A stretch of DNA of 64,000 nt, taken from assembly GCA_963666365.2 (NCBI GenBank), contig CAXXNF010000002.1:2144001-2208000 (forward strand), written 5' to 3'. Positions 9,644-35,560 of this stretch are shown here, piece by piece. Both the position numbers and the translations under genes were made by a program. Under the pieces are notes generated by a model that was not told where the DNA came from, searched no databases, and saw nothing but the letters and a program-made list of their open reading frames with translations. This DNA comes from Syntrophales bacterium. GTDB taxonomy: Bacteria; Desulfobacterota; Syntrophia; Syntrophales; UBA2210. Each line of letters opens with the position of its first letter. The stretch's first letter is position 1.

Positions 9644-9741
9644 GGAAGTGCCAAGGTCACTGGTGGGCCTCCCGGACTTCAAATCCGGTGTGGGGGGCTA
9701 GTACCCTCCCAGGTGGGTTCGATTCCCATGCACTTCCGCCA
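9644..9741 (+). tRNA. selC: tRNA-Sec (UCA)
   Basis: GGAAGTG...CACTTCC acceptor stem ending GCCA; anticodon arm CCGGA-CTTCAAA-TCCGG; long variable arm; GGTTCGATTCC T-loop; TTGACA at 9605. Confidence 0.96.
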
Positions 9742-9806: not shown

Positions 9807-10877
9807 TTATTGTGATAAAATTGTGATAGATTTTTGCGCTTCCTGCAAAACCGATTGTCGCTCCCTTGAAGCTTCATCGACTTTTTTTGCTGCAGAACGG
9901 AGATCCTCCTCGTTTATAATGTTGTATCGGTCAAATACACTCCTTGTCTTGTGACCGCTGATCTTCATTGCAACAACATCGGGAACTCCTGCTCTCGTCA
10001 TGTTTCGGACAGCTGTCCTTCGATTGTCATGCAAAAATCTCCCCACCAGCCCGGTCTTTTTACAGGCAGTATTCCAAGCTGCCTGGTAATTTCGAATCTG
10101 CTGCCCATCCCTAAAGAAGACGTAGGGACATTCCGGGTACTTTGTCTCCCTTATCTTCCACTGCAATAGAATCGTATCATAGAGTTCTCCTGTAAGAAAA
10201 ATCTCCCGACTTTCGCCATTTTTCGTCAACTCTGGAGGTAGCGTGATTTTTTCTTCAAACAGGTTGGTATGACACCATCGCAGATTAAGGATTTCCGATT
10301 TTCGCATCCCGGTAAAGTAGGCAATGGTCAAAACCGGTTTCATGTGAGCGGGTAAAGCATTTCGTAAACGAACGTACTCATCGTACTCAAAAAACCCTTG
10401 CCTGGGTTTGCTCTCCTTTAATTTCGGGATAAAAGGGGGATTCAGTACCCTGGGAGGACTTTGTCTCATCCCCAGCACAAAAATCCTGTTCAAGGCCGAG
10501 AGTTCCCTATTAATCGTCCCATTACTGGCCTTTTCTTCCTTTCTCAAAAGAATATAGTCATCTATAATACTTGATGTGATCTCAACAACTTTCATCCCGC
10601 CAAAGAAAGCTCCTAAGTGCTTAAGGCTTAATTCCGCACGATCCAGCGACCGCCTCTCGCGAATCTTATAATCTTTGATGAGTATATTGCTCAAGTCATC
10701 GAATGTTACCTTATCGAGATTCATATCGGGACGCTTTCCTTCCGCAATCTCGCCTTTCAATTTGTCAAAGATCCGCTGGGCCAGTTTTCGGTCTTCCGTC
10801 TCCGTTGACCGTCTGTACTGTTGCCCCTGATGAGTAAAACTCATCCACCAGACCGTTCCTCTCTTATAGAGCCCCAT
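9807..10877 (-). CDS. Tyrosine recombinase/phage-type integrase
   Basis: Likely start [14 protein letters not shown]; catalytic motifs [31 protein letters not shown]. Confidence 0.95.
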
Positions 10878-11235
10878 CTCTGACCTCCTTTCCGAGGCCC
10901 TTGATCCGGTCTGATTTCCCGTGATCGTCATGGTAATACTTTCCCTTTTCCTCGTCAATGGTCTTGCGGATGACCTTATCGAAGTTCCCGCCATTCCTGC
11001 TGACGGGCCCTCTTCTTCTTTTCTGCACATGCGGGTCTTTCGTTTCTCCACGCCGGTGTTCTTCCAGCCAGTCATCGACCTCTTCCATCCTGAAGCGAAT
11101 AAGTCGCCCGATGCGGTAATGAGGTATGTCTCCCGCTTCAACCTTCGCATACAATGTTTTCACTTTAACCCCGAGATATGCCGAAAGCTCTGATATCGTT
11201 AGCAAACATTGGGGTTCCTTTACTTTTCCTTCCAT
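10864..11235 (-). CDS. Excisionase-like HTH protein
   Basis: [47 protein letters not shown]; overlaps the integrase start. Confidence 0.88.
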
Positions 11236-11544
11236 TTTCGATGTCTCCCATCCGGGATCGGATGGTAATTGCATCGATGGCCACCAAACTGTCCGGCGGT
11301 CTGTGTCATGGTAATTGTTTCAAAAAAATCTGATCCCTGCTGTTGTGTGTTAGTCCCATGGAAAGAGCCCCGCCAGGGCTCTCCCCTCCTACGTTATGCT
11401 TACCCTTTTGCGCACCTCCTTTTATGTCAGTACCATATATTTATACATAGAGGGACAGAATGTCAATAACATATTGTATATACTATAATATACATCATTA
11501 TAACATTATTCTACCGATATATTATTGTTAATGTTAAAATCATC

Positions 11545-13724: not shown

Positions 13725-13952
13725 ATGTTTATGCACAAACACAAAATAGCAGCCATTAATGAACAACTGGCGTCCCGGCTGGGAAAAATGGACCCTACGG
13801 GACTTAGCATGAAGAGAAGAACTGAAACCATTCTGATCGATATGCTGGACAGATTACCACCTGGTTGGAATGCTCAGGACCCTGCCTGTACGGTGAAGTC
13901 GCGCAAGAGAAGAAGGCGTAGACGAGGACCTCGCGTTCTAACTTCCAACTAA
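13725..13952 (+). CDS. Small basic hypothetical protein
   Basis: AAGGAG RBS, 75 aa, Arg-rich tail. Confidence 0.45.
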   Translation: MFMHKHKIAAINEQLASRLGKMDPTGLSMKRRTETILIDMLDRLPPGWNAQDPACTVKSRKRRRRRRGPRVLTSN

Positions 13953-14137
13953 AACGGATAAGTCATTATAACAGTCACCGAATTGATGGTCTCATAGGGA
14001 AAGGAGGTACAATTATGAAGATATAAGCATATCATCGGATCAGCACTAATTTAAAATTTATAGACACATGTGGGGCCGGTTTTTTTCTGTGAAAGCCGGC
14101 CCTTTTTATTAACCTGAAACAGGAAGGAGAAATAAAA

Positions 14138-15202
14138 ATGTCGAATGACGAAAATATTACGAACTTAGAAGTAGAAAACGAAGTCATCACGGATGAGAAC
14201 AATCAGCATAACATTCCTTCAGTCGATGTAAATCATGACTCGATAGAGCCCGAATCAGAATACTGGTCCTATATGGGTACCGATAGTACCGCTGTTAACG
14301 AAATTAGAATATGCAGTGTCGGTGAGGAATTGGATGATGCGGAGGGTTACGGAGAGCGAATCAATGCCTGGACCGGGGAACTTGAGGCAAACCTCGTCGA
14401 GGGTAGAACAAGGCCCATCAATGATTTACTAAGCGATGGGGTTACCATGGTCCGTGAAATATCAGCAGACGCCAACAGCCTGATCAACTCCGCGAACCGT
14501 GATTTTGCGAACCGGGCTATTCAAATCGGTATTCTCTGCATCAAACTCAAGAGCCTGCTTTCGGAATCCAAGAGAAAATGGGGCCCCTGGGCAGAGGAAA
14601 ACCTCCCTTTCATAGCCCGACGCAACCGTGAAAAATATATGCGGCTTGCGAAACGTAAAGATTGCTGGCCCTTCAGCTTCCTGGGCGTTGACCGTCTCGA
14701 TGAGCTCTGCGCGGCGACCGAAAAGATGTCAGGCGAGGATAGAATTGGAGATCTCTTTCGCACCTACGGGATCCCCTTCGATGAAGGCTCGGAACTCAAC
14801 ATGACCGAATTTCGGCTCAAGATCGACACTGCCATCGCCAATGAACGGCTTATCAAAAAAAGCATAACAATTGATCCTGCCCTGGTCGAGGCCGTGATTC
14901 GCCAGGGAATCGAAGTTGACGGCGCCCTTATTCGTCGGTTGTCGGACGCAATAAGTTCCGGCGGAAATCCATCCATGCTGCTTGAAAAAATTTCCCTTGA
15001 GGGCGGCCAGGAGCCACAGAGCAAGGCACCGGAAACGCGAGTCAGAGATTTTAATAGTCTTTCCAATAAGTTGATCAAAACGATTGAATTCATTGCGGGA
15101 GACAGGGACCATCTGGACAGAATCGACAGGGAGAGCCTGGAGAGGCTCCTGGAAAAACTTCAGGGTATTCTGGAGCAATTTCAGCCTGAAACGGTAGCGT
15201 GA
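14138..15202 (+). CDS. DUF3102-like DNA-binding protein
   Basis: AIQIGILCIKLK...KWGPWAEENLPFIARRNREKYMRLA resembles the DUF3102 pattern; strong RBS. Confidence 0.55.
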   Translation: MSNDENITNLEVENEVITDENNQHNIPSVDVNHDSIEPESEYWSYMGTDSTAVNEIRICSVGEELDDAEGYGERINAWTGELEANLVEGRTRPINDLLSDGVTMVREISADANSLINSANRDFANRAIQIGILCIKLKSLLSESKRKWGPWAEENLPFIARRNREKYMRLAKRKDCWPFSFLGVDRLDELCAATEKMSGEDRIGDLFRTYGIPFDEGSELNMTEFRLKIDTAIANERLIKKSITIDPALVEAVIRQGIEVDGALIRRLSDAISSGGNPSMLLEKISLEGGQEPQSKAPETRVRDFNSLSNKLIKTIEFIAGDRDHLDRIDRESLERLLEKLQGILEQFQPETVA

Positions 15203-15274
15203 CTTTTAACAATCCGGCCCCTTACCGTCTCCGTAATGGTGGGGGGCCTTCACTTTTTATAAGGAGATACAATC

Positions 15275-16156
15275 ATGAAATTTTACCAAGCCTCCATGAG
15301 TTTGCGAATTCTGCAGAGGTACTGGAAAGTATTCGGTGAGAAAGTCAATATCCTGCTCTCTTTTGCCTATGTCGGCTCTGACTTTTCGAACATTGTCACC
15401 AACTGTCGGCACATGGTGAAGGGACTCGTTCTCGATTCCGGTGCGTGGTCCGTTGCCACGGGTGTTGCCGACCTTTCGCTGCAAAACTACATGGCGTTCA
15501 CAAAACTCCATGGTCATCGCTTCGATCGATATTTCAATTTCGACACAGACTTCAGTGATAGCGGCTTTGATCACAACGTAGCCCACCAGCTGATCATGGA
15601 GCGGGAGGGACTTTCCCCAGTTCCCGTGGTTCACAATCTCTTTGACGGTGAGATCGATTATTATGTTCAGTCCGGCAGATATGACTATCTCGCGTTGGGT
15701 TCGAGCCAGACAACCAATTATGACGACCTGGCCTATGGGGTTCATCGAATCAAGAAGGCAAAGGAGGACATGAAAATTCACTGGTTCGGCGGCGGCAGGT
15801 ATGACTGGCTCAGCAGATTGCCCATAACATCCTGCGACACATCATCGTGGGCATCACTCGGCAAGTTCGGTTTCATCATGTACTGGAACCAGCATCAACC
15901 GGGGCCGAACAAGGCTGACAAAATATACGTCAGCGGCACAGTGCGACCGGTAAAGGAAGATGAGTTTCTCTACACCACCTATCCCTGGAGAGAGGAACTT
16001 GACCGCTACATTTTCACGGTCTTTGGGCTCACCTTTCATGATCTCTGTGCCTACGAGGGAGCCTTCAACATGCAGCTGATCAATACCAGGTTCTATGCGG
16101 AAATGGAAAAACGGATCAATGAGGAGCGGACCCGCCGGGGAATCGCACTGGAATAA
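15275..16156 (+). CDS. TGT/DpdA-like base-exchange transglycosylase homolog
   Basis: LDSGAWS, FNFD, PVPVVH, YDYLALG, IHWFG and SCDTSSW match the ordered motifs of the TGT TIM barrel, including both catalytic Asp positions. Confidence 0.6.
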   Translation: MKFYQASMSLRILQRYWKVFGEKVNILLSFAYVGSDFSNIVTNCRHMVKGLVLDSGAWSVATGVADLSLQNYMAFTKLHGHRFDRYFNFDTDFSDSGFDHNVAHQLIMEREGLSPVPVVHNLFDGEIDYYVQSGRYDYLALGSSQTTNYDDLAYGVHRIKKAKEDMKIHWFGGGRYDWLSRLPITSCDTSSWASLGKFGFIMYWNQHQPGPNKADKIYVSGTVRPVKEDEFLYTTYPWREELDRYIFTVFGLTFHDLCAYEGAFNMQLINTRFYAEMEKRINEERTRRGIALE

Positions 16157-16359
16157 AAAACGCAGGAGTCTGCGCTTTTTAAATATTCAACGAAAGGAGG
16201 TATCATTATGGAATAACTATTATTGATACAAGTTGTTAGGACTACAATGGAAGTGGGACGTCTCCAGGAAGGGCGTCCCTTTTTTATTCCAGCACCATGA
16301 ACAGCGGAAGCATCCGGCCTGGCGGACTCCTAGAAAAAAATACAGAAAGGATAAAACAA

Positions 16360-16908
16360 ATGTCAGGAAAAGTCTTTGATGACCTAAAAAGAATTTTCGA
16401 ACAAATTGGCATCCAGATGGACGATGAAGATGAATTGGTTAATTCGGTTTATACCTTAGTGGGCTTTTATGATTACAGAAAAGTTGAAATGTGTGTGGCA
16501 CTCGAACATCATTACTGGCCCCACTTTTCCAAAATCTGGATTGGCGAAATAACGGTGCCAATAGAAAAGATATCTGCTGCCTATGAGCTTATTAGCAGAA
16601 TCAATTCACTGCTTGTATATGATCATTTTAAAATCGACCCCGAAAGTGGTGAAATCGGATTGTATGCTGGTTTTTATAGTGGAATGGTCGGATGCGACGA
16701 AGATGAAGAGGAATTAAATGATGGTTTGGATACATATAGTTTTATGCATATCCGTATGTTGATTTATCAGATGATCCGACATTTTTCCCTTTTTTCACCA
16801 TTGTTTAACACATTAACTAAAACCGATAAGCTTCCATCTGTTATCATGGAAGAATTTTGGAACAAACTTTCCAAAAAAAATAAAGCTGAATTGAGAGAGT
16901 ATCTCTAA
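16360..16908 (+). CDS. YbjN-like (T3SS-chaperone fold) protein, paralog 1
   Basis: VPIEKISAAYELISRINSLLVYDHFKIDPESGEI; start placed at MSGKVF after AAAGGA. Confidence 0.6.
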   Translation: MSGKVFDDLKRIFEQIGIQMDDEDELVNSVYTLVGFYDYRKVEMCVALEHHYWPHFSKIWIGEITVPIEKISAAYELISRINSLLVYDHFKIDPESGEIGLYAGFYSGMVGCDEDEEELNDGLDTYSFMHIRMLIYQMIRHFSLFSPLFNTLTKTDKLPSVIMEEFWNKLSKKNKAELREYL

Positions 16909-17127
16909 TAATCTTCCCAAAGGGACCATCGTGGAATACCGCTGGAATGAAAAACGCAGGAGTCTGCGTTTATTGAGAAAGGGGTGAGCGGATATATGAT
17001 TGCATGAAAACGGTTTTCGGTTAAGCAACTCAAATAATTCAGGTATACGCAATGATAAAGGGGATTGTCTCTCAAACGGGACGCCCCTTTTTTATTGCCA
17101 TTAATCAAAGAAAGGTAGGATTTTGAA

Positions 17128-18123
17128 ATGAATAAGATGAATAAGTTTACCGCTAAAGACAAACAGATCTTCGATGACATGAAGCAATGCGTCAAGGATC
17201 TCGGATTAAAAATTGTTGATGAGTATGTGGAGGAAGGGGTTCTTTTGGGAATGTCTACGTTTGAATACCCAGGTTACAACTTGGGGATCTTTTTTTCCTA
17301 TACCCCGTCAACGAATATGGCGTCGGTGGTTTTGGGGTATGCAGATATACCGGTTGAGAAGCTTCCAGCTCTGTATGATTTGCTAAACCGCATTAACGGA
17401 CACCTGATAGGCAACCACTTTTCTATCAATCCTGAACTTAGGATTCTTCTCATGCATTCAGGCATGGAAGTGACTGGCTACTTCCTCGATAAAGCGGCAT
17501 TTATGGGTATCCTTGGACATGATCTCGGCTCAGGACATACGTTTATGCCCTTGATTGGCAAGGTCCTGGCGAGTGATCAAACACCCCAGGCGGTGATGGA
17601 GGAATTTATGAAACAAAAACACAAGATGCCTCGTACCCTGTTTATGCAGGATGGGACGCTCAGAGTGGAACAGGAGGCAGAGGATCTTCCATTCTTCATA
17701 CATGTGTATAAAGATATGCCTGCTTTTCCCACCCACACCCATGGCCTCACAGAACTGGGCATGCCAGAGTTTTTAATGGATCCTCTTTCATTTGGTCAAA
17801 AGGGAACGTACACGCTCGTCATTGTGTCGTACAACTATTTCAGCTGTCCCGAGAATAAAGCTAAGCTGGAAGCCATTATGAATGGGAAAATTGTCAAATT
17901 GACGCACCGTGACCTGGCGCCTGACGGATGCGGTGAAGACCCTTACGTCTATTGCTACCGCAGGGTCTATCCAGAGTTCGAGATGGTCAGGCAAGCATAC
18001 AACATCGACGAGGAAAAGGAACAATCAGACGCCTCTCCGGAAGTGTGTTTTGTCCAGATCTACGTTGAGGGAGATGATCATGTCTTGACTGACGATTACT
18101 ACAAGGGCGGGGTTATGTGGTAG
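17128..18123 (+). CDS. YbjN-like protein, paralog 2, with extra C-terminal domain
   Basis: IPVEKLPALYDLLNRINGHLIGNHFSINPE; C-terminal HTHGLTELGMPEF domain. Confidence 0.6.
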   Translation: MNKMNKFTAKDKQIFDDMKQCVKDLGLKIVDEYVEEGVLLGMSTFEYPGYNLGIFFSYTPSTNMASVVLGYADIPVEKLPALYDLLNRINGHLIGNHFSINPELRILLMHSGMEVTGYFLDKAAFMGILGHDLGSGHTFMPLIGKVLASDQTPQAVMEEFMKQKHKMPRTLFMQDGTLRVEQEAEDLPFFIHVYKDMPAFPTHTHGLTELGMPEFLMDPLSFGQKGTYTLVIVSYNYFSCPENKAKLEAIMNGKIVKLTHRDLAPDGCGEDPYVYCYRRVYPEFEMVRQAYNIDEEKEQSDASPEVCFVQIYVEGDDHVLTDDYYKGGVMW

Positions 18124-18220
18124 GGTAATCAAAAACTAATACATGACAAAGGGGATCGATCGTGCCCGAGATTGATCCCCTTTTGTCATTTCAGCACTTT
18201 CAGAAAGGAAGGAAAAGACA

Positions 18221-19249
18221 ATGAGTAAAAAGAAAAATAAACAAGGCAATAAGGTCGTAAGGGACTTGAAGGAATGTTTCCGGTCCTTCAATCTACCCGT
18301 CAATAAACTCAAAGGCAATCATGACGATCCCATGAATGTCGTCTTCACCTCTCAGCTCTGTAATGACCAGGCCTGCGCATTTGTAGCCGTTACGTTTGAT
18401 AGGTTTAGAGGATATATCGGCATGGACGCCGCCGCCCTTCGCTTTAAAATTCCTCAAGAGAGAATGGGAGAGACATTGACGCTGTTAAATCTGCTCAATG
18501 AAATCAGGCCTATCTGCAGCTATTCGGTTTGCCCCTGCTGCAATACCGTGTCATATAGGACAGCTTTGTTTCTCTCTGGTGAGACCCTTCCTGTGAGTAA
18601 ATTCAGAAGGCTTATCCAGGATATGCTTGAAGAGACATACCTCTGTTTCCCGTTGATATCCAAAGTGGCCACAGATGGCAATCCCAAGGATCTTCATGCT
18701 CGGTTTATGGATGACCATAAACATCTGATGAGCATGGAAAGTAAGTTGTCCCAAAAAGCAATAAAGCAGATTCTTGATGACATGGGGCAGGTTATGGCCA
18801 ACCTCAAAATACCGATTCATGAGAGGCTCTCTGACGGTTTTGTCACGGATCTCATGCTTGAAGGCATGGATTTTCCGGTCCGTATCGGCGTTACACTGGT
18901 AAAAGAATATGAATTGGTCACGCTGAGCGTTGGACCAGCCTTTACCGTTCCAGATGACAAGATTCCCGTAATGTTGGATTTGGTGAACCGGATCAATAGA
19001 GCGTCCGAGCCAGATCATATGTTCATTAACCAGCAATCAAAGCGGGTGATCCTTGTCAACGGGATTCTGATCGACAATGGCACCTTTGATAAAAGGGAGT
19101 TAGAATTGTCGCTTCAAATCCTGCTGGGAAAAGGAAGGTTAGTCTTTCACACTATCAATGAGCAGCTTTCTTCCAATGAAAGCCCAGAAGATCTTTTCGA
19201 AAAGACGATAAAATATCACGAGAAGATCATCGAGAATCAGAACGTTTAG
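18221..19249 (+). CDS. Double YbjN-like domain protein, paralog 3
   Basis: Two copies: IPQERMGETLTLLNLLN and VPDDKIPVMLDLVNRIN. Confidence 0.6.
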   Translation: MSKKKNKQGNKVVRDLKECFRSFNLPVNKLKGNHDDPMNVVFTSQLCNDQACAFVAVTFDRFRGYIGMDAAALRFKIPQERMGETLTLLNLLNEIRPICSYSVCPCCNTVSYRTALFLSGETLPVSKFRRLIQDMLEETYLCFPLISKVATDGNPKDLHARFMDDHKHLMSMESKLSQKAIKQILDDMGQVMANLKIPIHERLSDGFVTDLMLEGMDFPVRIGVTLVKEYELVTLSVGPAFTVPDDKIPVMLDLVNRINRASEPDHMFINQQSKRVILVNGILIDNGTFDKRELELSLQILLGKGRLVFHTINEQLSSNESPEDLFEKTIKYHEKIIENQNV

Positions 19250-19937
19250 TTGATTCTGGAAACCCACACCCTGTGGGTGTGGTCATGTGGGATTGGCTGT
19301 GCCAGTCCCGAATGGGTATGGCCAAATAGGCCGCCCACTGCTATCCTTGCTCAGAGTTGTTAGCCACAACAAAAGAGCAAGGAGGAAGCAGTGAGCAGAT
19401 TTCACAAGTTATCACATACGATATGGCATTGTCAGTACCATATTGTATGGGTTCCGAAATACAGATACCGGATTCTGACAGGTGCTGTTCGGGATGCGAC
19501 AGAGGCGGGGATTCAAGCGATATGCGGTTATGCAGGGTGCGAAGTAATCGAGTTAAACGTACAACGTGATCATGTACACCTTGTGGTAATGATACCGCCC
19601 AAGCTGTCGATATCGAATTTGATGGGTCGCGTTAAGGGACAGACATCAATGAAGATGTTTCATCAATTTCGGGAATTGCGGAAGAAGCCCTATTGGGGGA
19701 ATCATTTTTGGGCAAAAGGATATTGTGTTGACACAGTTGGACTGAATGCCGAGATGATTCGGAAGTATGTCCGGTATCAGGAGAAAAAAGAGAAGCAGGA
19801 AGAGCAACTGAGGTTAGATTAAGAGCACAGAGACATGCGGCACAACTCGCTATGCCTCGCCCCCTCTGGGGGCAGAGGCACAATCCCCCTATGGGGGATA
19901 AATTAAAGCCGCGTCCTGTGGGCGCGGATTATTTACA
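19250..19937 (+). mobile_element. IS200-type element (IS200/IS605 family), no tnpB
   Basis: Subterminal hairpins CCACAC-CCTGTGG-GTGTGG and CCGCG-TCCTGTGGG-CGCGG flank tnpA; inserted between a stop codon and its terminator. Confidence 0.85.
19391..19822 (+). CDS. tnpA: Y1 HUH transposase
   Basis: YHIVWVPKYR, DHVHL, FWAKGY, IRKYVRYQ. Confidence 0.95.
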   Translation: MSRFHKLSHTIWHCQYHIVWVPKYRYRILTGAVRDATEAGIQAICGYAGCEVIELNVQRDHVHLVVMIPPKLSISNLMGRVKGQTSMKMFHQFRELRKKPYWGNHFWAKGYCVDTVGLNAEMIRKYVRYQEKKEKQEEQLRLD

Positions 19938-20129: not shown

Positions 20130-20315
20130 ATGAAGACAGCCTGTTTTACAAAAGCGTTAACCGTAGCCTTTACCGAAGACATTTACCTGAAAATCAAGGA
20201 AATAACCGATGAGAAAAATATTTCCATGGGGGAATGGGTGCGAATCGCAGCGGAAAGGGAATTGAACAATAACGAGTATATCAAATGTATTTCTGGAGGA
20301 ATCAAGCATGACTAA
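20130..20315 (+). CDS. Ribbon-helix-helix-like small regulator
   Basis: beta-helix-helix pattern; paralog of 37413-37592; overlaps the primase start. Confidence 0.6.
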   Translation: MKTACFTKALTVAFTEDIYLKIKEITDEKNISMGEWVRIAAERELNNNEYIKCISGGIKHD

Positions 20316-22647
20316 ATTTATATCAGACAAAGAGACTTTCATTACAATGGCATCTGATTTTTTCAACGAACTTTTTGAACCAGCGTTTAATAGCGAGTGC
20401 GGTGATATCGAAATCAGGACATTCAAACCATCACCTCAACAGAACTTTTACAAATCGGAGCATGAAGCCGCTGAAAGAGCGTTCGATTTATGCAACCGGG
20501 GCATTGATGTGTATTTCGGAGTGAATCCGCGAACCGGCAATGCTGGAAAAAAAGAGAACATCCAGTATGTGAGTGCATTCCACGCGGAAATCGATTACGG
20601 CGAAACAGGTCATAAAAAAGATACACCCCATAAGACGTATGAAGACGCCTTAAATGCTATAGAATCCTTCAACCCGGAACCAACCATTATTATCCACAGC
20701 GGCGGCGGCTTTCATTGTTACTGGGTATTGAGCAATCCCGTAAAGGTCGATGCCATTGGATGTCAGATTCTGGAAAGCATCAATAAAAATCTGTCGGAAA
20801 AACTGGGAGGCGATCGGGGAACACAGGACATTACACGGGTGCTGCGAGTGCAAGGTACATACAATTTTAAAATAATGGACAATCCGCGACCAGTAATGCT
20901 CATATCCAACAGTCATAAGAAGTATGAGTATGAGGAGTTCAGGACATTCATACCCACCGAACATGCAGTCGCAAGCGGCATACCAGACACCGGCAAAAAT
21001 CTTCAGACACACCGCCCAGTTGCGCATGTTGAGCCCTCACAACTGTCGTTTGATATAGAGAACTTGCCTGTTTCGAGTAAAATAAAGTCGCTTATTAAGA
21101 ATGGCAATGACGGCAGGTATACATCAAGAAGCGAAGCAGACATGGCGGTGGTAATTGCTCTGGTGAATAAAGGGGTGAATACAGAAAATATCAAACAGAT
21201 ATTTCTCAACTGTGGCATCGGTGAAAAATACAGGGAGCATCGCTCAAAAGACGACTATTTGAACCATACCATTGAACAGGCAAAAAAATACTCTGATCTT
21301 ACCGAAGAAGAGAGGACAGACCCGCTTTTCATTACAAACGCGCTTTTAAAAACAGATGGGAGATATCGACTCAACATTCTGAAATTTCAAGAATACATGG
21401 TCAGAAAATACCGTATAGTCATTCTTGACCGTGAACAGGCAATGTTCCGCTATACAGGTAAATGCTATGAACAGATAACAGATAAGGCCCTTAATAATCT
21501 CTGCCAGAGGGAACTGAAGGACCATAGAAATCTCTTTTCCCGGTCGTCTCTTTCAGAATTCATCCATTACGCCGTGGGAGAAACACTGGCCGACAGCGAG
21601 AAGGTGAAGCAGGAGCAGGTCAATTACCTGACAATGCAAAACGGCATCTATGAATTTGACCGTGGGAGATTATTGCCCCGTACCCCAAAAATCTTCACAA
21701 CGAATCTTCTGCCTTTTGAATACGACCCCAATGCTAAATGCACCAGATTCATACAGTTTCTTAATGAAGTATTCGAAGGTGAGCAGGAAAAGATCCGTTT
21801 CGTACAGGAAGCTGTGGGGTACATCTTTCACAAGTCCATTCCCACCCCTGCGGTCTTTTTCCTTATCGGGTCAGGCAGCAACGGCAAGTCGGTTTTCATT
21901 AACACCATATCCAGCCTGGTAGGAAAGGAGAATACAAGCAACGTCAGCTTCAACCTCCTTTCCGACGAGACCTACATTCTTGAGCTTTATCAGAAGATGA
22001 TCAACATCTCCGGTGAAACCCCTCATGCAAAAACGATCGATACAGATGTGATTAAAGCGGTGACGGCTGGCGATTGGGTTACGGGAAGAGAGCTTTACAA
22101 ACCGCCCATGAAATTCCGACCTTTTGCTAAAAGCTTTTTAGCTATGAATAATCTGCCCACAATAAAAGATACCTCGCATGGTATGTGGCGGAGAATATGG
22201 GTTGTCACTTTTCCCAAAAAATTTGAAGAACATGAGATGGATCGACAGCTGGAAGAAAAACTCACGAAGGAGTTATCAGGCATCTTTAACTGGGCGCTTG
22301 AGGGGTACAGTAGATTAAAAGGAAACGGTTTTTCTTTACAGGAAAGCGATTCCATGAAACTGGAGAAGAAGTCTTACCGGATAAGTGCCGACAGTGCCAG
22401 AGAATTCATTAGTGAATATCTTGCTCCTTCGAGTGATGAAAATGCACGAATTAAACTTAGTGTGCTCTATAACCACTATAAAGACTGGTGTAATTCACAA
22501 AGATCAAAAGATGTTAAAAATAAAAATGAATTCAAAATAATACTTGAAGATATGAAATATTATGTAGACAACTCTTCAAAAGACAATAATCAAGTTCATG
22601 CATTCAATGTTGTTTTTAAAGAGAATATAAAAAATATTATTGTATAA
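20308..22647 (+). CDS. P4-family primase-helicase (RepB-like primase + D5/SF3 helicase)
   Basis: HSGGGFHCYW, RVLRVQGTYNFK, SRSEAD, Walker A GSGSNGKS, MNNLP, GMWRRI. Confidence 0.9.
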   Translation: MTKFISDKETFITMASDFFNELFEPAFNSECGDIEIRTFKPSPQQNFYKSEHEAAERAFDLCNRGIDVYFGVNPRTGNAGKKENIQYVSAFHAEIDYGETGHKKDTPHKTYEDALNAIESFNPEPTIIIHSGGGFHCYWVLSNPVKVDAIGCQILESINKNLSEKLGGDRGTQDITRVLRVQGTYNFKIMDNPRPVMLISNSHKKYEYEEFRTFIPTEHAVASGIPDTGKNLQTHRPVAHVEPSQLSFDIENLPVSSKIKSLIKNGNDGRYTSRSEADMAVVIALVNKGVNTENIKQIFLNCGIGEKYREHRSKDDYLNHTIEQAKKYSDLTEEERTDPLFITNALLKTDGRYRLNILKFQEYMVRKYRIVILDREQAMFRYTGKCYEQITDKALNNLCQRELKDHRNLFSRSSLSEFIHYAVGETLADSEKVKQEQVNYLTMQNGIYEFDRGRLLPRTPKIFTTNLLPFEYDPNAKCTRFIQFLNEVFEGEQEKIRFVQEAVGYIFHKSIPTPAVFFLIGSGSNGKSVFINTISSLVGKENTSNVSFNLLSDETYILELYQKMINISGETPHAKTIDTDVIKAVTAGDWVTGRELYKPPMKFRPFAKSFLAMNNLPTIKDTSHGMWRRIWVVTFPKKFEEHEMDRQLEEKLTKELSGIFNWALEGYSRLKGNGFSLQESDSMKLEKKSYRISADSAREFISEYLAPSSDENARIKLSVLYNHYKDWCNSQRSKDVKNKNEFKIILEDMKYYVDNSSKDNNQVHAFNVVFKENIKNIIV

Positions 22648-23733: not shown

Positions 23734-24612
23734 AATACCGGAACCCCTCCCTTTGGGTCGGGTTTCCTCGGGGACCATATAGTTATATTTTTGTAGTTAG
23801 GGAAAAATGGTTATGGAGATATGAATATTCATACAAGAAGATTGGTCATGCATTACTAAAGGAATTGGTCAAGAGGAAATTATGGGGTAATAGATTTATA
23901 GTAATGAAGAATGGGTAAACATTACTTGTGAGATTGGTCGTACACACCATGGGGTTTACTTGTAAGAAATACAAAACTATAACAAATAAAAAATGGTGAG
24001 AGAAGAAGAGTGGTCGGTTGCTGCTTTTATCTACTGTTTACTTCATGCTGCTGGTGGGTATACTGAAACAATACCCTCTGAAGTCTATCTCATGTCTTCC
24101 AGGAAAGAAGATCTGTGGGAAAGTGGAATGGATCGCGAAGGGTTCCCATGGTAGTAGCGTCCGTTATTACAGCAGGAGTAATGGGTCCCGGTTTCGCGCG
24201 CCGCCTGATGGGATCGTGAGCCTCATTGAGGGAGACCGTCCGTACTGTCGAGCATTCACCATCCCGGGACTTCTCAGGTTGTCTCTCCGGTGAGTTCTGC
24301 CGCATCGTATATATGGGGTTGGATTATGAATGAACGAGTGCTGACATCAAAGCAGGAAGGTTTGAGAGGGGAGGGCAAATACGCAGGAGTCTGCGTTTTT
24401 AGCTGTTTTCACCATGAGCATCGGGCAGAATGGATGGACGTATTGAACATTCTCCGAGACTATCGAAAGTACCTCTGCAAATAAACGAGATCATTCCGAA
24501 ATAACGACCGTTTTTCGCCGTTCTTGATATTTACAATGAATTTTGGGCGAATTCGGGAAGGCGTTGGAATGAAAGGGATATGTGTTGCGGAGTACACCTC
24601 TAAAGCCTCAGC

Positions 24613-27955: not shown

Positions 27956-28130
27956 GACGGTATTTTTTTGCCGGCTTTCAAGGAAACCTGAGGGCCTTTA
28001 ATTAAGTATACTGTTTGAATGCATAAGTAAGAAAGATTGCAGGAAACCTCCAGGCGGGTCACAATGTTTGTAAATGCAAACTGCTGGGTCGAGATGAGTT
28101 CGCCCAGAAATGAACCACAAGGAGGTTTCC

Positions 28131-29162
28131 ATGGACAGATCTTACTACATAGGGTTGGATATTCACAAGAAGGTAATCGCATATTGTATCAAGGCCCTTG
28201 ACGGATCCTTGATTGATCAGGGAAAGATAGGGGCAGACAGGCTGGCCTTGGGAGTATGGGTGAAGGGTCTGCCGGGACCCTGGATAGGAGCTATGGAAGC
28301 GACCCTCTTCACCGGATGGGTGTACGACTTTTTGAAACCCCATGCCGTTGCCCTGAAGGTGGCTCATCCAGCGATGCTCCAGGCCATAACAGTCGCCAAG
28401 AAGAAGAATGATCGAGCCGATGCGGAAAAGATAGCCGATCTACTGCGGGTGAATCTTCTGCCTGAATGCCACATGCTCTCGGAAGAGATTCGCGAACTGG
28501 GGAGAATATTACGATATCGCAACCACATAGTTCGGACGGCAGTGAAGATTCAGAACAAGATGTCGGGCCTGCTCATGGAGGTTGGGGTCAGCTACAGCAA
28601 AAAACGCCTGCACGGCAATAAATACTTTCATGAGCTACTCGAACGGGTCGATGAGATTCCTCCTTCGGTTAATGAGCTTCTTCAGTTGAGCCGTTCCAGC
28701 TATGAGATGTTTCGCTCTTTCCAGAAGCGGCTTGTTGAGACGCTTCGTACCGACAGCCTGATCAGTGGGCGGGTGCATCGTCTCATGACCATCCCCGGAG
28801 TAGGCGAGATAACAGCTCTCACTTGGATATTAGAGATTGGCGATCCTGACCGATTCTCATCCATTCGGAAGGCAGTCAGTTACTGTGGTTTGTGCAGCGC
28901 GCAAAGGGAATCAGCGGGGAAGGAACAGCGAGGTCCCATCTCCAAGAAGAGGAACAAGCACCTGCAAACCATGCTCATTGAGGCAGCAAAGGTTGCGCCG
29001 CACTGGAACGAACAACTGGCAATCGTACATGAACGAGAATTGAAGAAGGGTAACCGGAACAGGGCAACGCTTGCCGTTGCGAGAAGGCTTGTTGCCTACA
29101 TGTTGGCCGTTGACAGGAAAGGAGCAGATTTCAATCTGCCCTCTGAAATACGGGCAGCATAA
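28131..29162 (+). CDS. IS110-family recombinase/transposase
   Basis: YIGLDIHKK, AMEAT, KNDRADA (DEDD), TIPGVG, QRESAGK. Confidence 0.95.
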   Translation: MDRSYYIGLDIHKKVIAYCIKALDGSLIDQGKIGADRLALGVWVKGLPGPWIGAMEATLFTGWVYDFLKPHAVALKVAHPAMLQAITVAKKKNDRADAEKIADLLRVNLLPECHMLSEEIRELGRILRYRNHIVRTAVKIQNKMSGLLMEVGVSYSKKRLHGNKYFHELLERVDEIPPSVNELLQLSRSSYEMFRSFQKRLVETLRTDSLISGRVHRLMTIPGVGEITALTWILEIGDPDRFSSIRKAVSYCGLCSAQRESAGKEQRGPISKKRNKHLQTMLIEAAKVAPHWNEQLAIVHERELKKGNRNRATLAVARRLVAYMLAVDRKGADFNLPSEIRAA

Positions 29163-30349: not shown

Positions 30350-32122
30350 CCTAAATTCCCGGCTTAATGTAACGAGGTTGGCGGGGCGATCCCCATTGCC
30401 TCATAAAGTTCGATTTGTTTCTTTGTCACTTCACCTACGCGAAGTTCATACCCCGGGTACTCAAAGCATTCAATGATGTCCAGTTCATCCAGAAGCTCAT
30501 GCATCGTATATTTTTTGAAAAGATTTCCATCTTGCATCTTCTTTTTGAGATAAGAAAGAAAAATAAGCGCGATAAATTCCACAAACAGCTTGCCGTCCAG
30601 ACTTTGATCGGAGGACACCGCCATGCGGTTGAAATTCAGTCGCTCTTTCAGATTTCCGAAGGCCTTTTCCACAAGATCCTTGTTCCGGTATATTTCCAGG
30701 GCTGCGATAGGTTCCCTGACCTCGTTGCTGAGTAACACAAAAAATCCATAATTCTTTCGTGCATCAAGAAGAGCATCCTCTCTGGCAATAACCTTTGTCC
30801 CTCTTACCGGGGTGGTGGTGACATCAAAATATTTGGCGTACAGCCTGTCGTGTTCCGGAAGGGTTGCGCCGCCTTCCAATTCCTCCTGCAGACGACAAAG
30901 CAGGGCGTTGAAGTTCTTTTCATCCTCCAATGCCCGTTCACTGTTAAAATAGAGGTGCATATACATCCGGCGTTTTCCCTTAAGAATATCGCCCTTGTAA
31001 GGACGCTCCTGAGAATAGTCCCATTCTATCTTCGTGGTGCAGGCATAAAGATCATGTTTCTGATTATAGTGTGTCCAGGTACGGAGTGAATCGCGCACAT
31101 TATCCAGTTCGGTCTTTACGAATTTCAACGACTTCTTTGCGGCAATCAGGAATTTCAAATGATTCCGGTACAGGTCGTTGATATTGTCCTCGCTGTAGAA
31201 TCCCCTGTCCATAACCAGCTTGATCTTGTCGTACCCAAAGAAATCGATGTCAGCCAGAAGGTTCTTCACTGTCTTCACATCGGGAATGTTGCCTGCAAGT
31301 TTTCGGTAGTAAAAAGGAAGATTGGATTCCTCCCCGAACAATAACGCGAGATTGATCTGCGGAAGCGGCTCATGATCCTTGTTCATCCCGTATCTGACCT
31401 GGCTTAAGCATCTGGAATAGCTCGATATGGAGGTCGTATCATAGGCCCAGTACTCTTTCTCGACTCGCCGTCTTCCCTGCAGCCGGAAAAACCGATTCTT
31501 GTCGTCTTCGGTAATAGATGCGAACAACTCACTGCTCCTCTGAGAAGGGATGTTTCTGCCGTAAGGATGCCTATGCGTGGCTGCCCATTTCGGAAAACGG
31601 CTCAAGGGGTTCCTGTCCTCCATGATGAGGTAGTATGCCGTGGACAAAATCTGTTTGTATGTGCCGGGAAAGCATTTTTTCAAATCCGCGGCAATCCCGA
31701 GCTTCTCGCCGATGGCGTCAAAAAGGTATGTTGCCCCGTAAAAACTGCGGGATACATTCTCGATAGGGACCGGACCTCTTTTATGGACTTTGTCATGATT
31801 GCCGGGATCAGTGGCAACCACCCTTTTTCTGGTCGGGATGATCTCCTTTGTCTCGGGATCAACCCGTCCGATGCATCTACGTGTGGCACGAGACTGCTTT
31901 TTCTCTTTATCCCAGTAGGATAGCGATTCATAGGCATAGGTAATTCCCGTCTGCTTGCTGGTCTGATACACAATCGCCGCCATTGAGCACCCCCCCCTTT
32001 TTTATCATCGTTACATTATGCTTAACATGTAACGAGACTCAAATCAAGGAAAAATGCTCCGATCTATTAATGTTTATTCGGCTTTTATGCCTTTCATCGT
32101 TACATTATACCGGGAAGGCAGG
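30350..32122 (-). mobile_element. IS1634-family element (transposase 30364-31983)
   Basis: DDE motifs YDTTSISS, MDRGFYS, VEKAF; ends CCTAAATTCCCGG / CCGGGAAGGCAGG; TATTAT duplication at 30344-49 and 32123-28. Confidence 0.92.
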
Positions 32123-32620
32123 TATTATGTGCATTAGCTAGGATTTGATTTGACAGACATTGTCAGAAAAAATACCTGATTGAATCATCAAGTACACCTA
32201 CCTATCAACACCCATGATGTTACGGCAAACTTACTCATTAATTATTGTAGTCGAGATTTTGCGCTAGAGTGGCGTTATCGTAGGTTTGATACCGTAATGC
32301 TCAGCTTTAGGAGTTTATTTTACGATGGAGCAGGATATTGGCTCCACCTACAAGTCATTGAGGTCTTGCCAAAAGGAAATCAACAATTATCATTTGAAAT
32401 ATCAATATCCCTAAAACTTATTGACAAAACCACTGAAAAGGAGTTACTCATTCGCCAGTTATTTTATTTTTTCCTTATTCACTGCCATGCTTTAACCGCT
32501 TGTAATGAAGGAGTGAGGATGGTTTGAATCTAACAGCCCTGTTTCTAGAAAAGAGAGATAGGGCTTTTGTCTTTTGTGAACAACTCAATATGTTCCGTCA
32601 CCAAGATGAGTAAAAGGGTA

Positions 32621-32795: not shown

Positions 32796-34205
32796 ATGGA
32801 AACAGATTACTTACACGCATTAGCAAATATAAAATTTGAAGTTGATTGTTGCCTAATTGTCCTTACCCAAGAGGGTGAAATCGATAATCCTCGAATCTAC
32901 AAAGGCCCAGGTACAATAATTCAAAATGACGAAAATTCATTTTCTGTCAAAATTTTTTGTGAAGGAAAATTAGATATTAAAGAAGTGTTTGGCAAAATTA
33001 ATCGTCTGACGCCTGGAAAATTAATCGAAAGGACAAACTACTACTCTCTTGAAGCATCTGACTATGCTGGGAATACATGGACTGCAAACTCCATAATGCC
33101 TAATACAAATGGTGGTATGGACTGTGACGGTTTTTTGGTTTCTGGCAATTTCACTAGGTTATTTTGCCACAGAAAAGAACACTATGAATACAAAGGAATG
33201 ACATTAAAATTATTTTACAAAGGAAAATATAAAATCCCATGTAATACGGTTACAAAATCAAAGCACATAATCGGAACTGAGGATAGAGGAACAAGTAGCA
33301 AATTGAATGTTGCTCAGTTTGAAATTGAAAATATTGAATTCGAAATCTTATCAGACGATGACAGGCTTATTGTTTATCTCTACTCTCAGAGCGAAAATCT
33401 AACAAAAGTTACCGCCCAGAGAATACATGAGGCTCTTCAGTTTGTATTGGTTAACTTAGAGCCTTGGGATATTTTGTTAATTCAAAAAAGTAACATCCAA
33501 GAAACCATCTTTCGAACTGTTCCTCCGACATCTCGGAAATCAAGAGTTCAGCCACCATTGCATTTTGATTCAGTGGATAGAGGTGGGTATGTATGGAATA
33601 TGTTCGAATTATTTCTAAAGTATTCATTGCCGTACCAAGAGGCAGATTGGCACCCATTGTATGCACAAGTTCATAAAGTTATAGAGTCAGGGAAAGCATC
33701 CATTGAAGCACATGCTTTAACATTAGCCGTTTCAATAGAAGGACTGCTTAAATTGTGCTTTCGCGAAGTTGCTCTCCCAGATGATGAGTTCAAGAATAAA
33801 GTTAAAAAAGCAACTGATGAAATTAACAACAGTGGCATCGATAGCAATCTAAAAATAAGGCTGCAAGGCGCACTTGGAGCAATGAAAAGCCCCAGAGCCA
33901 AGGATAGACTTTATAGCCTGCAGCAATCGGGAATAGTTGAGGAACGACTTGTTACTTCATGGAGCAACATGAGAAATAGTTCTGCTCATTCGGATTCCAT
34001 AGAGTTATTAGAAATACAAAATTTTTTAAATGATTGTAGTGCAATGTGTGTACTTTTTAACCAACTAATTTTTCACGTAATTGGCTATAGGGGAGAATAT
34101 ACAGACTATAGCGTTTATGGTTATCCGAAGAAAAAATATGAACCGATAGAAACCCTAACAAATATAGGATTAGTCCCGAGTCGAGGAACGAGCGCTCGGA
34201 ACTAA
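32796..34205 (+). CDS. ApeA-like HEPN protein carried as a gene cassette
   Basis: C-terminal RNSSAH (RxxxxH) after LAVSIEGLL helix; low GC; flanked by GTTAGGG/CCCTAAC. Confidence 0.65.
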   Translation: METDYLHALANIKFEVDCCLIVLTQEGEIDNPRIYKGPGTIIQNDENSFSVKIFCEGKLDIKEVFGKINRLTPGKLIERTNYYSLEASDYAGNTWTANSIMPNTNGGMDCDGFLVSGNFTRLFCHRKEHYEYKGMTLKLFYKGKYKIPCNTVTKSKHIIGTEDRGTSSKLNVAQFEIENIEFEILSDDDRLIVYLYSQSENLTKVTAQRIHEALQFVLVNLEPWDILLIQKSNIQETIFRTVPPTSRKSRVQPPLHFDSVDRGGYVWNMFELFLKYSLPYQEADWHPLYAQVHKVIESGKASIEAHALTLAVSIEGLLKLCFREVALPDDEFKNKVKKATDEINNSGIDSNLKIRLQGALGAMKSPRAKDRLYSLQQSGIVEERLVTSWSNMRNSSAHSDSIELLEIQNFLNDCSAMCVLFNQLIFHVIGYRGEYTDYSVYGYPKKKYEPIETLTNIGLVPSRGTSARN

Positions 34206-34465: not shown

Positions 34466-35560
34466 CTATCCCGAAGGACCCCATCGGGGCATAGGACTTA
34501 CAAAGGCAATAAACCTTAACGCCTGTCCACAGCAGGGACATTTAATCCCTTCCCCTTTATGTTCGGGTGTGTTGGGTAAGAGATCACGGATGACATCGTG
34601 GATTAATGAAATGAGTTCACGCAGCTGTTCGATTGAGAAGGAACTGTTTGAATTGAGAAAGCCGTAGTATCGTATTTTCATAAGCCCTTTCGGCAGGACA
34701 TGCTGAAGAAATCTTCGGATAAACTCCACGGCATCAAGCTTCATGGTTTTCCATGTCTTCTTCCGACGATCTTTATATCGAAATGTAATGACGCCGTTTT
34801 CAATATTTTTAATGCGGTTATTAGAGATGGCGACGCGGAAGACATACCGTGAAAGGTAGCGCAGAGAGTTTTGCCCCGTTCCCACGGCCTGACTATCGAC
34901 AACCCATTGTTGCGTCCAGAGGTCGGGATGAATGGTATCAAAGAGTCTGGCCTTTTTCATTGCATCCCGGAACTTGGCCCGAAAGATGATTGCCAGGGGT
35001 TGTGTGTGCACAAAGAGATCTTGTCTTGAGGATACCCATTGATCTCCTTTTTCGGATACTGCGCCGCCCGGAATAACCAGATGGAGATGAGGGTGATACT
35101 GAAGCATGTTTCCCCAGGTATGGAGCACGGCCAGATAACCGATTCGTGTTGAGCCGACAAACCGCTTGTCTTTCGCTAATTTCCTTAGCGCTGCATGAGC
35201 GCATGAGAACATGGCCGCATAAACGATCTTTTGATGGGATCTGGCAACTTCCCGAAGGCCTTGCGGCAGCGTTATGGTTAAGAGGAAATAATGGGTGGGC
35301 AAAAGCTGTTCCATCTGTTTGTGAAGCCATTGATCCCTTTTATCATGCTGACAGTTCGGACAGTGGCGATTCCCGCAGCAACAGGGAATGGAGTGTATGG
35401 CGCCACAGTCATGACAGCCATACACAATCGTTCCGAAAGAACCACTGCGGCAATCAGTGATATCCTGCATGGCTTTTTTATGAATGTGCGGCATTCGGTC
35501 GCCATGCAGCGCCAGATAGTGCGGCCCATATATCTGGAAGATTTTTTGAATAGCGCTCAT
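34466..35560 (-). CDS. IS91-family (Y2 HUH) transposase with Zn-binding N-domain
   Basis: CHDC...CGNRHCPNC, LHTWG, HPHLH, YLSRY, EFIRRFLQHVLPKG, IRYYG. Confidence 0.95.
   Translation of the reverse strand: MSAIQKIFQIYGPHYLALHGDRMPHIHKKAMQDITDCRSGSFGTIVYGCHDCGAIHSIPCCCGNRHCPNCQHDKRDQWLHKQMEQLLPTHYFLLTITLPQGLREVARSHQKIVYAAMFSCAHAALRKLAKDKRFVGSTRIGYLAVLHTWGNMLQYHPHLHLVIPGGAVSEKGDQWVSSRQDLFVHTQPLAIIFRAKFRDAMKKARLFDTIHPDLWTQQWVVDSQAVGTGQNSLRYLSRYVFRVAISNNRIKNIENGVITFRYKDRRKKTWKTMKLDAVEFIRRFLQHVLPKGLMKIRYYGFLNSNSSFSIEQLRELISLIHDVIRDLLPNTPEHKGEGIKCPCCGQALRFIAFVSPMPRWGPSG

Follow-up and report, generated by a model that had tools for sequence, protein, structure and literature searches.

What stands in front of three genes of an integrated island in a Syntrophales bacterium, where a ribosome-binding signal of unusual strength leads into a reading frame that ends almost as soon as it begins, and a hairpin follows before the gene itself? 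The window, by which we mean the whole 64,000-nucleotide (nt) stretch analysed, covers positions 2,144,001 to 2,208,000 of contig CAXXNF010000002.1 (assembly GCA_963666365.2), and coordinates are counted from its first letter. A first-pass annotation had described, between 13995 and 17100, three units that each consist of a Shine-Dalgarno (SD) box, a mini-gene of two to three codons and a hairpin; direct reading finds all three there. We identify these units, called U1, U2 and U3, as copies of one conserved, strand-specific candidate RNA leader module that is absent from Rfam and belongs to a family of tRNA-integrated islands. Their parts are as follows (aa, amino acids).

13999-14008 (+): SD box of U1, GAAAGGAGGT, a 10-nt perfect complement of the host 16S 3' tail
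14015-14026 (+): mini-gene of U1, ATG AAG ATA TAA, with the ATG 7 nt past the GGAGG core
14072-14103 (+): hairpin of U1, 13 pairs, with a T run to 14110, ending about 27 nt short of the 354-aa gene's ATG
16192-16201 (+): SD box of U2, GAAAGGAGGT, a 10-nt perfect complement of the host 16S 3' tail
16208-16216 (+): mini-gene of U2, ATG GAA TAA (start, one codon, stop)
16255-16279 (+): hairpin of U2, 9 pairs, with a T run to 16285
16976-16984 (+): SD box of U3, AGAAAGGGG, 7 nt perfect against the 16S tail, 9 nt with one G.U pair
16996-17007 (+): mini-gene of U3, ATG ATT GCA TGA
17060-17087 (+): hairpin of U3, GGGGATTGTCTC...GGGACGCCCC, with a T run to 17093

The host 16S gene ends in ...GGATCACCTCCTTTCT, and the genes behind U1, U2 and U3 begin at 14138, 16360 and 17128, respectively. 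A terminator scan listed the U1 and U2 hairpins in full and the U3 hairpin in part. Mini-genes of at most four codons behind a strong SD occur 103 times in the genome, and in only three of these, including U1 and U2, does a terminator-like hairpin lie within 140 nt. The codons ATG ATT GCA of U3 recur in five related loci (L017, L030, L032, L190 and L191), there with the stop TAA.

U1 and U2 have in common the string GAAAGGAGGTA..ATTATG, unlike the family consensus GGAGGTGATGC. By hand count, the SD-ATG stretch of U1 (14001-14026) also matches the 293-aa gene's ribosome-binding site (RBS) with its first codons (15261-15286) at 20 of 26 positions. Both likenesses may be due to local copying inside the island.

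Copies in related islands

The protein encoded behind U1, of 354 aa, has 49 homologues in a large protein collection, and none of its family was found in 60 related genomes, viral contigs or plasmids. The DNA around its relatives was taken from 7 genome loci and 53 metagenome loci (numbered with the prefix L), in which the protein is 25-55% identical to that of the window. Of 45 distinct loci, about 38 carry the module upstream of the 354-aa homologue, as judged by eye over 300 nt of upstream sequence and backed by model matches. The layout in these loci is the same: a box (for example GAAAGGAGGTGATGC) leads into a short open reading frame (ORF), which a linker separates from a hairpin (for example GGCCATTCCTGGCAACGGGGGTGGCC); a T run usually comes next, and the RBS of the gene closes the series. 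Six loci do not show it (L026, L041, L043, L050, L062 and L069), and L065 has the linker and hairpin alone.

Model R1 was built from 37 copies, including the three of the window, and gives 95 matches over the 60 loci at an expectation value (E) of 1 or less. In 39 non-redundant sources there are 54 matches at E≤0.005, and all 54 lie on the gene strand; seven R1 matches fall on the minus strand, each with E≥0.03. Several copies may occupy one locus (four each in L013 and L032, three each in L037 and the window). A second model, R2, was made from 43 copies from other islands and holds no window sequence; since RNAalifold returned no pairs for it, it scores sequence alone. Among the 44 window matches listed for R2, U3 ranks first (E 1.6e-4), U2 second (2.7e-3) and U1 third (0.022), so that U1 is marginal by this test.

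Across the whole 4.0-Mb genome, R1 finds only the three window copies and one weak match at E 0.056, and 4 of 151 genomes of the class, the host included, have a match at E≤0.001. A search of the window against Rfam 15 at gathering thresholds returned tRNA-Sec only, and five related loci searched at E≤1 returned two tRNAs and one chance plastid match, none of them at the module. Blastn searches of annotated plasmids and phages gave no match to the module. In viral contigs, a 16-mer of the box is present in at least 116 stretches, and most of the 14 inspected are ordinary gene RBSs; model scores there reach at most 31 bits, and a few of the viral copies do carry a mini-gene.

Two further units that had been proposed as members fit the description in sequence but do not belong to the family. 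The first, at 32508-32575, has the reported features, and yet its match at 32498-32574 scores only 9.1 bits (E 1.2) with R1 and is not on the R2 list. The stretch 32498-32575 consists of AAGGAG, ATG GTT TGA and a hairpin with a T-rich tail, and lies about 220 nt before a gene at 32796, beside transposase genes. The second, on the minus strand at about 11365-11422, is likewise as described, but its match at 11412-11431 (-) has 7 bits and E 3.6 with R1, and E 9.7 with R2. Within 11355-11430 (-) we note AAAAGGAGGTG, which is complementary to the 16S tail over 10 nt and has no ATG at the usual spacing. About 30 nt beyond it, upstream of the integrase side, there is a hairpin that lacks a U tract, and the arrangement resembles the copies of L014, L063 and L067, which lack both ATG and U tract.

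Nearly every copy leads into a gene, with an ORF of at least 60 codons starting on the same strand within 230 nt downstream in 56 of 59. Of these 56 ORFs, 41 belong to the 354-aa family and 8 to the 331-aa family of the gene behind U3, one is the 182-aa gene behind U2, one is a primase, and five are other genes. The gap between hairpin and start codon is mostly 15-62 nt ahead of the 354-aa family, the U1 value falling within this range. Eight of the 59 copies lie directly 3' of a DpdA-like gene. The module precedes the pair formed by the 354-aa and DpdA-like genes and also genes after that pair, including replication genes.

Start, stop and hairpin

The SD box is far longer than is usual for a gene. 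Over the 54 elements, the longest uninterrupted complementarity to the 16S tail is 9 nt at the median and 13 nt at most (the boxes are complementary to 5-13 nt of the tail), compared with medians of 6 nt for the RBSs of 51 genes behind the elements and 4 nt for those 53 ORFs in the window that have 150 codons or more. Behind the box, a strict mini-gene, defined by an ATG 5-12 nt past the GGAGG core and at most four sense codons, is found in 33 of 54 copies, versus an expectation of 3.0 from shuffling of the 36 nt that follow the core. If up to nine codons are allowed, the number rises to 36 of 54, and in all 36 the SD-ATG spacing is 7-10 nt. The 33 strict copies have two sense codons in 15 cases, three in 14, four in 2 and one in 2, and they end in TAA (18), TGA (11) or TAG (4).

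What lies between start and stop is hardly constrained. In the subtype found behind DpdA-like genes, which reads ATG, one codon, stop, the middle codon may be GAA, TGC, CGC, ATC, AGC, GGC, AGA, GGT or AAC. The start and the stop are held, and the peptide between them is free to vary. The sequence after the stop is rich in A+T (75%, versus 59% overall), and the linker from stop to hairpin is A-rich with a median length of 32.5 nt.

The hairpin is conserved as a structure. In its alignment, 90% of 431 cells are standard pairs, both partners have changed in six of eight pairs, and none of 500 shuffles attains as much covariation as is observed; in slid registers, pairing drops to 35-60%. The alignment used here was fitted to the model and hence favours the structure, and an independent MAFFT/RNAalifold run returned the same eight pairs, five of them with compensatory changes. 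U-G pairs are frequent and would be mismatches on the opposite strand, and because so many are valid on one strand only, the structure belongs to the plus-strand RNA. By a strict rule, 40 of 54 copies have a U tract; of the 14 that fail, five have the T run drawn into the stem, one is mislocated, and eight are truly without a tract.

In one subclade (L010, L013, L023, L027 and L190) the stem may extend past the U tract (CGGAAA...UUUCCG), and L027 carries a change in each arm of the extension (UGGAAA...UUUCCA); only read-through RNA would be able to form this longer helix. As a general property, a stem extension was rejected (mean z -0.41, with 6 of 46 below -2), and RNAalifold gave no consensus on the extended stretch. 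A boxA-like motif after the hairpin, compared with the host rrn leader, was also rejected, being absent from U1-U3.

These results bear on the wider proposal of the first-pass annotation, namely a repeated, island-specific RNA design whose SD, ATG and stop look functional. The bias to the gene strand, the covarying, G.U-rich hairpin and the copies in related islands bear it out, and SD, ATG and stop, whose loss from homologous intergenic regions was to count against the proposal, are all three conserved in those islands, where the flanking protein is just 31-55% identical.

The island around the module

The island is integrated beside a tRNA-Sec gene (9644-9741), which it adjoins and which is followed by a tyrosine integrase gene (9807-11150, -; Pfam Phage_integrase). 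In the related loci L014 and L017, a tRNA likewise lies a few kb upstream of the module. From the integrase onward, a row of genes runs rightward from a 75-aa ORF to a primase-helicase gene, and several transposase genes lie within this row or to the right of it:

13725-13952 (+): 75-aa ORF, the first of the rightward operon, directly before U1
14138-15202 (+): 354-aa gene with no assigned family, the commonest gene behind the module
15275-16156 (+): 293-aa gene, TGT/DpdA-like (phrog_887; tblastn to phage records)
16161-16174 (+): small hairpin CGCAGGAGTCTGCG, directly 3' of the stop of the 293-aa TGT/DpdA-like gene
16360-16908 (+): 182-aa gene, behind U2
16933-16968 (+): relic 3' end of a DpdA-like gene (GGAATACCGCTGGAATGAAAAA) with a second small hairpin, 3' of the 182-aa gene in the intergenic stretch IG4 (16909-17127)
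17128-18123 (+): 331-aa gene, behind U3, whose homologues follow the module in seven other copies
18221-19249 (+): YbjN-domain gene, in the rightward row
19391-19822: IS200-type transposase gene, between the YbjN-domain gene and the primase
20308-22647 (+): D5_N/DUF5906 primase-helicase gene, in the rightward row
28110-29162: IS110-type transposase gene, right of the studied operon
30364-31983: DDE transposase gene, right of the studied operon
34466-35560: IS91-type transposase gene, right of the studied operon

Between 13725 and the primase, the terminator scan lists six terminator-like hairpins (14072-18183), and the full U3 hairpin, of which it lists a part, makes a seventh.

The 293-aa protein matches PHROG 887, ‘queuine tRNA-ribosyltransferase’, at E 1.1e-21, and by tblastn it also matches 70 phage records with 25-30% identity, of which several bear the annotation queuine tRNA-ribosyltransferase; on these two grounds we call it TGT/DpdA-like. 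It stays paired with the 354-aa gene in related islands, and the 354-aa protein may be a partner of this DNA-modifying enzyme. The predicted model of the 354-aa protein is all-helical (pLDDT, the predicted local distance difference test, 74); the sequence has no match in Pfam, PHROG, NCBIfam or the PDB, and the model has no PDB structure match at E≤0.001. The product of the 75-aa ORF is small and basic, ends in an arginine run (...KSRKRRRRRRGPR...) and could conceivably bind RNA. It has no family match, and the gene at this position is not the same in related islands.

The small hairpin is basically a CGCAG-loop-CTGCG stem. Conserved in sequence and followed by the SD box, it stands 3' of the stop of the DpdA-like gene in eight module copies. 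The exact 14-mer occurs three times in the genome, always inside the window (16161, 16955 and 24382), and an inexact copy lies outside it at contig positions 2224759-2224782 (-), with 96% identity over 24 nt. Neither this copy nor that at 24382-24395 has an SD or mini-gene behind it. The relic at 16933-16968 is nearer to the gene ends in L031 and L033 than to the end of the window's own 293-aa gene. With this relic and the second small hairpin, U2 and the 182-aa gene are bracketed by duplicated joints, which suggests that this cassette was inserted at the joint that the relic marks.

Possible roles and known counterparts

Judged by these comparisons, ribosome binding and the start-stop are under selection in an RNA module that is placed in cis. 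The rrn promoters of the host are canonical (TTGACA/TATAAA-type) and none of this type fits in the gap from hairpin to start codon, so the downstream gene must be transcribed through the hairpin. Our tentative preference is for a cis leader that parks a ribosome on the start-stop ahead of a terminator gate, a mechanism that we infer. A ribosome would be captured on the start-stop that heads the leader. Since it would advance by one to three codons only, it need not melt an SD helix of 9-14 bp, and because this long helix would never have to be released, the ribosome could stay parked or reinitiate in place. The hairpin/terminator would end or punctuate most transcripts, and the next gene would be made from read-through RNA only. 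The parked ribosome would act after transcription, shielding or marking the RNA as STAB-SD does, or insulating cassettes, and would thereby set the yield of each cassette; it would not work by covering or refolding the terminator. STAB-SD of cry3A, in the passages of PMC4113751 devoted to it, is an SD-like stretch within the 5' untranslated region that binds the 30S subunit and stabilises the mRNA by blocking RNase J1.

Several observations weigh against this picture. The strict mini-gene rule is missed by 21 of 54 copies. Some of these start with TTG or GTG, place an ATG just 2 nt past the box or have ORFs of 5-9 codons, and one is cut by the model match. Five weak matches are without an SD and have only an A-rich stretch and the hairpin. 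Eight copies have no U tract (L014, L045, L046, L057, L060, L061, L063 and L067), so that termination is not universal in the module. The SD-ATG region is predicted to be only slightly more open than in shuffles (0.47 versus 0.43, and more open in 24 of 36 copies), a weak signal. RNase J (TIGR00649) was not found in the host genome, which is 94% complete, while control matches were obtained in 13 of 14 named genomes; as STAB-SD blocks RNase J1, any shielding would have to be against another nuclease. Finally, the copies are related to one another and their counts are not independent events, and the start codons of flanking genes were picked by a simple rule.

Of the mechanisms put forward by the first-pass annotation, a ribosome decoy or a small RNA may apply. 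In one rival account the module would act in trans: a terminated RNA of about 100 nt, holding a ribosome at its 5' end and the terminator hairpin at its 3' end, would accumulate as the early operon fires, and would tie up ribosomes or cycle them through dipeptidyl-tRNA drop-off, damping host translation. The copies do have the two or three codons, strong SD and mostly TAA stops of the design rules for toxic mini-genes, as the relevant passages of PMC8708949 give them. A strong SD with a very short ORF, as expected of such mini-genes, is found in 33 of 54 copies; the A+T-rich sequence after the stop, the strong hairpin with a U tract in most copies and the presence of several copies per island agree with it as well. 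We nevertheless consider action in trans unlikely, given that no conserved promoter lies upstream (the box is often only about 10-25 nt past the terminator of the previous gene), that eight copies are without a U tract, that the second codon varies, which argues against starvation for one particular tRNA, and that the copies stand directly before a same-strand gene, a position not needed for trans action. A decoy for CsrA, which the host encodes, had also been suggested; RNAs that titrate CsrA (CsrB/RsmZ type) are rich in GGA, chiefly in hairpin loops. The suggestion is not borne out, since the elements contain 2.31 GGA each versus 2.16 in shuffles, and only 7 of 54 have GGA in the loop. A ribosome-dependent transcription attenuator, in which the terminator would form or not depending on ribosome binding or on translation of the mini-gene, either by covering of the hairpin or by an antiterminator switch, would account for finding SD, mini-gene and terminator together in one leader and for the dependence of the downstream gene on read-through, and the SD region is often the best partner of the pyrimidine-rich 5' arm of the hairpin. 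The upstream part, however, pairs with this arm no better than it does when shuffled (mean z -0.16, with 2 of 46 below -2), so the antiterminator of the classical form is lacking. The distance from stop to hairpin (range 1-69 nt, and 15 nt or less in only 2 of 36) has a median too long for a ribosome on the mini-gene to touch the hairpin. Moreover, the eight copies that have no U tract retain the hairpin. The attenuator named by the first-pass annotation is therefore not supported in its classical form, and we regard an attenuator as quite improbable.

The module might also be kept mainly as a homologous joint for the swapping of cassettes, with the SD-ATG as the relic of a lost gene start. 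T4-type phages carry repeated promoter/stem-loop cassettes. In the window, the DpdA-like relic in IG4 and the second small hairpin bracket the cassette of U2 and the 182-aa gene, the start of U1 resembles that of the 293-aa gene over the 26 positions noted above, and the stem of the small hairpin is conserved in sequence without covariation. A relic should decay, yet the ATG at optimal spacing and the early in-frame stop are kept while the codons change, and neither the strand bias of 54 out of 54 nor the covariation of the main hairpin would be expected of a joint. This account can hold alongside a function; as the main reason for conservation, we give it a low probability. The conserved TATGAT-like hexamer could in principle be a -10 promoter element and not a start codon. 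A promoter scan does place TTGAGA-16-TATGAT over U3 (10 of 12 positions) and TTTAAA-17-TATCAT over U2 (9 of 12), in a host whose rrn promoters are of the canonical type. Against this, the matches over U2 and U3 are at chance level, no -35 element is conserved (the second subtype has TTGAGA 13 nt from the hexamer, or none), the hexamer varies at its last position while ATG and in-frame stop are held, and the conserved box is an exact complement of the 16S tail. A promoter is thus hardly credible. Lastly, the module could be a nut-like site with the ribosome as its ligand, an idea that we hold to be very improbable. Here the long SD helix would hold a 30S or 70S particle, which RNA looping would keep tethered to the polymerase, and the tethered polymerase would resist downstream terminators, letting distal genes such as the primase be expressed. 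The module does stand upstream of terminators, is kept in copies without a U tract of their own and shows no alternative pairing, and internal promoters are not evident in the operon.

As for the parked-ribosome leader, precedents exist for its individual parts, in leader mini-genes, STAB-SD and intrinsic terminators. The closest counterparts are the leaders of axe-txe (mg2) and of LEE1 of enterohaemorrhagic Escherichia coli (EHEC), where, according to the passages of PMC8708949 on these cases, two-codon mini-genes affect, in cis, the gene that follows them, and a ribosome on a strong SD can start again without coming off. The likeness, as far as those passages go, is that of an SD with start, one codon and stop inside the leader of another gene. 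The module differs in that its SD is far longer, a hairpin/terminator sits between mini-gene and next gene, and the next start is about 70-150 nt away (15 nt in axe-txe and LEE1); it is also a conserved family with several copies per island. With STAB-SD it shares a box that complements the 16S 3' end without serving as the start of a real gene; STAB-SD, whose box lies close to the 5' end of the RNA that it protects, has neither a start-stop nor a following terminator, and RNase J was not found in the host.

Other systems resemble it in single features. The mini-genes of lambda bar are very short ORFs behind an SD on a mobile element, and can trap peptidyl-tRNA; the inhibition of translation that toxic mini-genes of this type cause by drop-off is relieved by peptidyl-tRNA hydrolase. 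The module is similar in its very short ORF behind an SD and in its mobile setting; in contrast to lambda bar, its second codon is not conserved, and its copies stand directly before genes and are followed by a hairpin. The ampC leader of E. coli has an SD, a start and an immediate stop and ends in a terminator, and has been proposed to sense the supply of ribosomes by covering of the hairpin. In ampC the ribosome site adjoins the hairpin, whereas the stop of the module lies a median of 32.5 nt upstream. Attenuators of the trp type depend on a competing antiterminator pairing, which the module does not show (mean z -0.16). The G+C-rich hairpin and U tract of intrinsic terminators are present in U1-U3 and, strictly defined, in 40 of 54 copies.

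In the literature on mini-gene, start-stop or extended-SD elements in mobile elements we found no description of such a family, nor of the combination seen here, in which a box complementary to nearly the full length of the 16S tail is joined to a start-stop and a covarying hairpin, in a multi-copy family before a DpdA-like module. It adds a candidate RNA family to those outside Rfam. To our knowledge, what has been described of mini-genes and start-stop sites comes from single cases (lambda bar, LEE1 and axe-txe), and their natural role is debated. What sets the present elements apart from these is that the family-wide conservation, the strand bias, the covariation of the hairpin and the fixed start and stop with free codons between them are all observed in one multi-copy family on mobile islands, before genes of DNA modification and replication. 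Compared with the single cases, such a family offers many natural variants with which the effects of a parked ribosome on a leader could be tested, be it on stability, on read-through or on host takeover.

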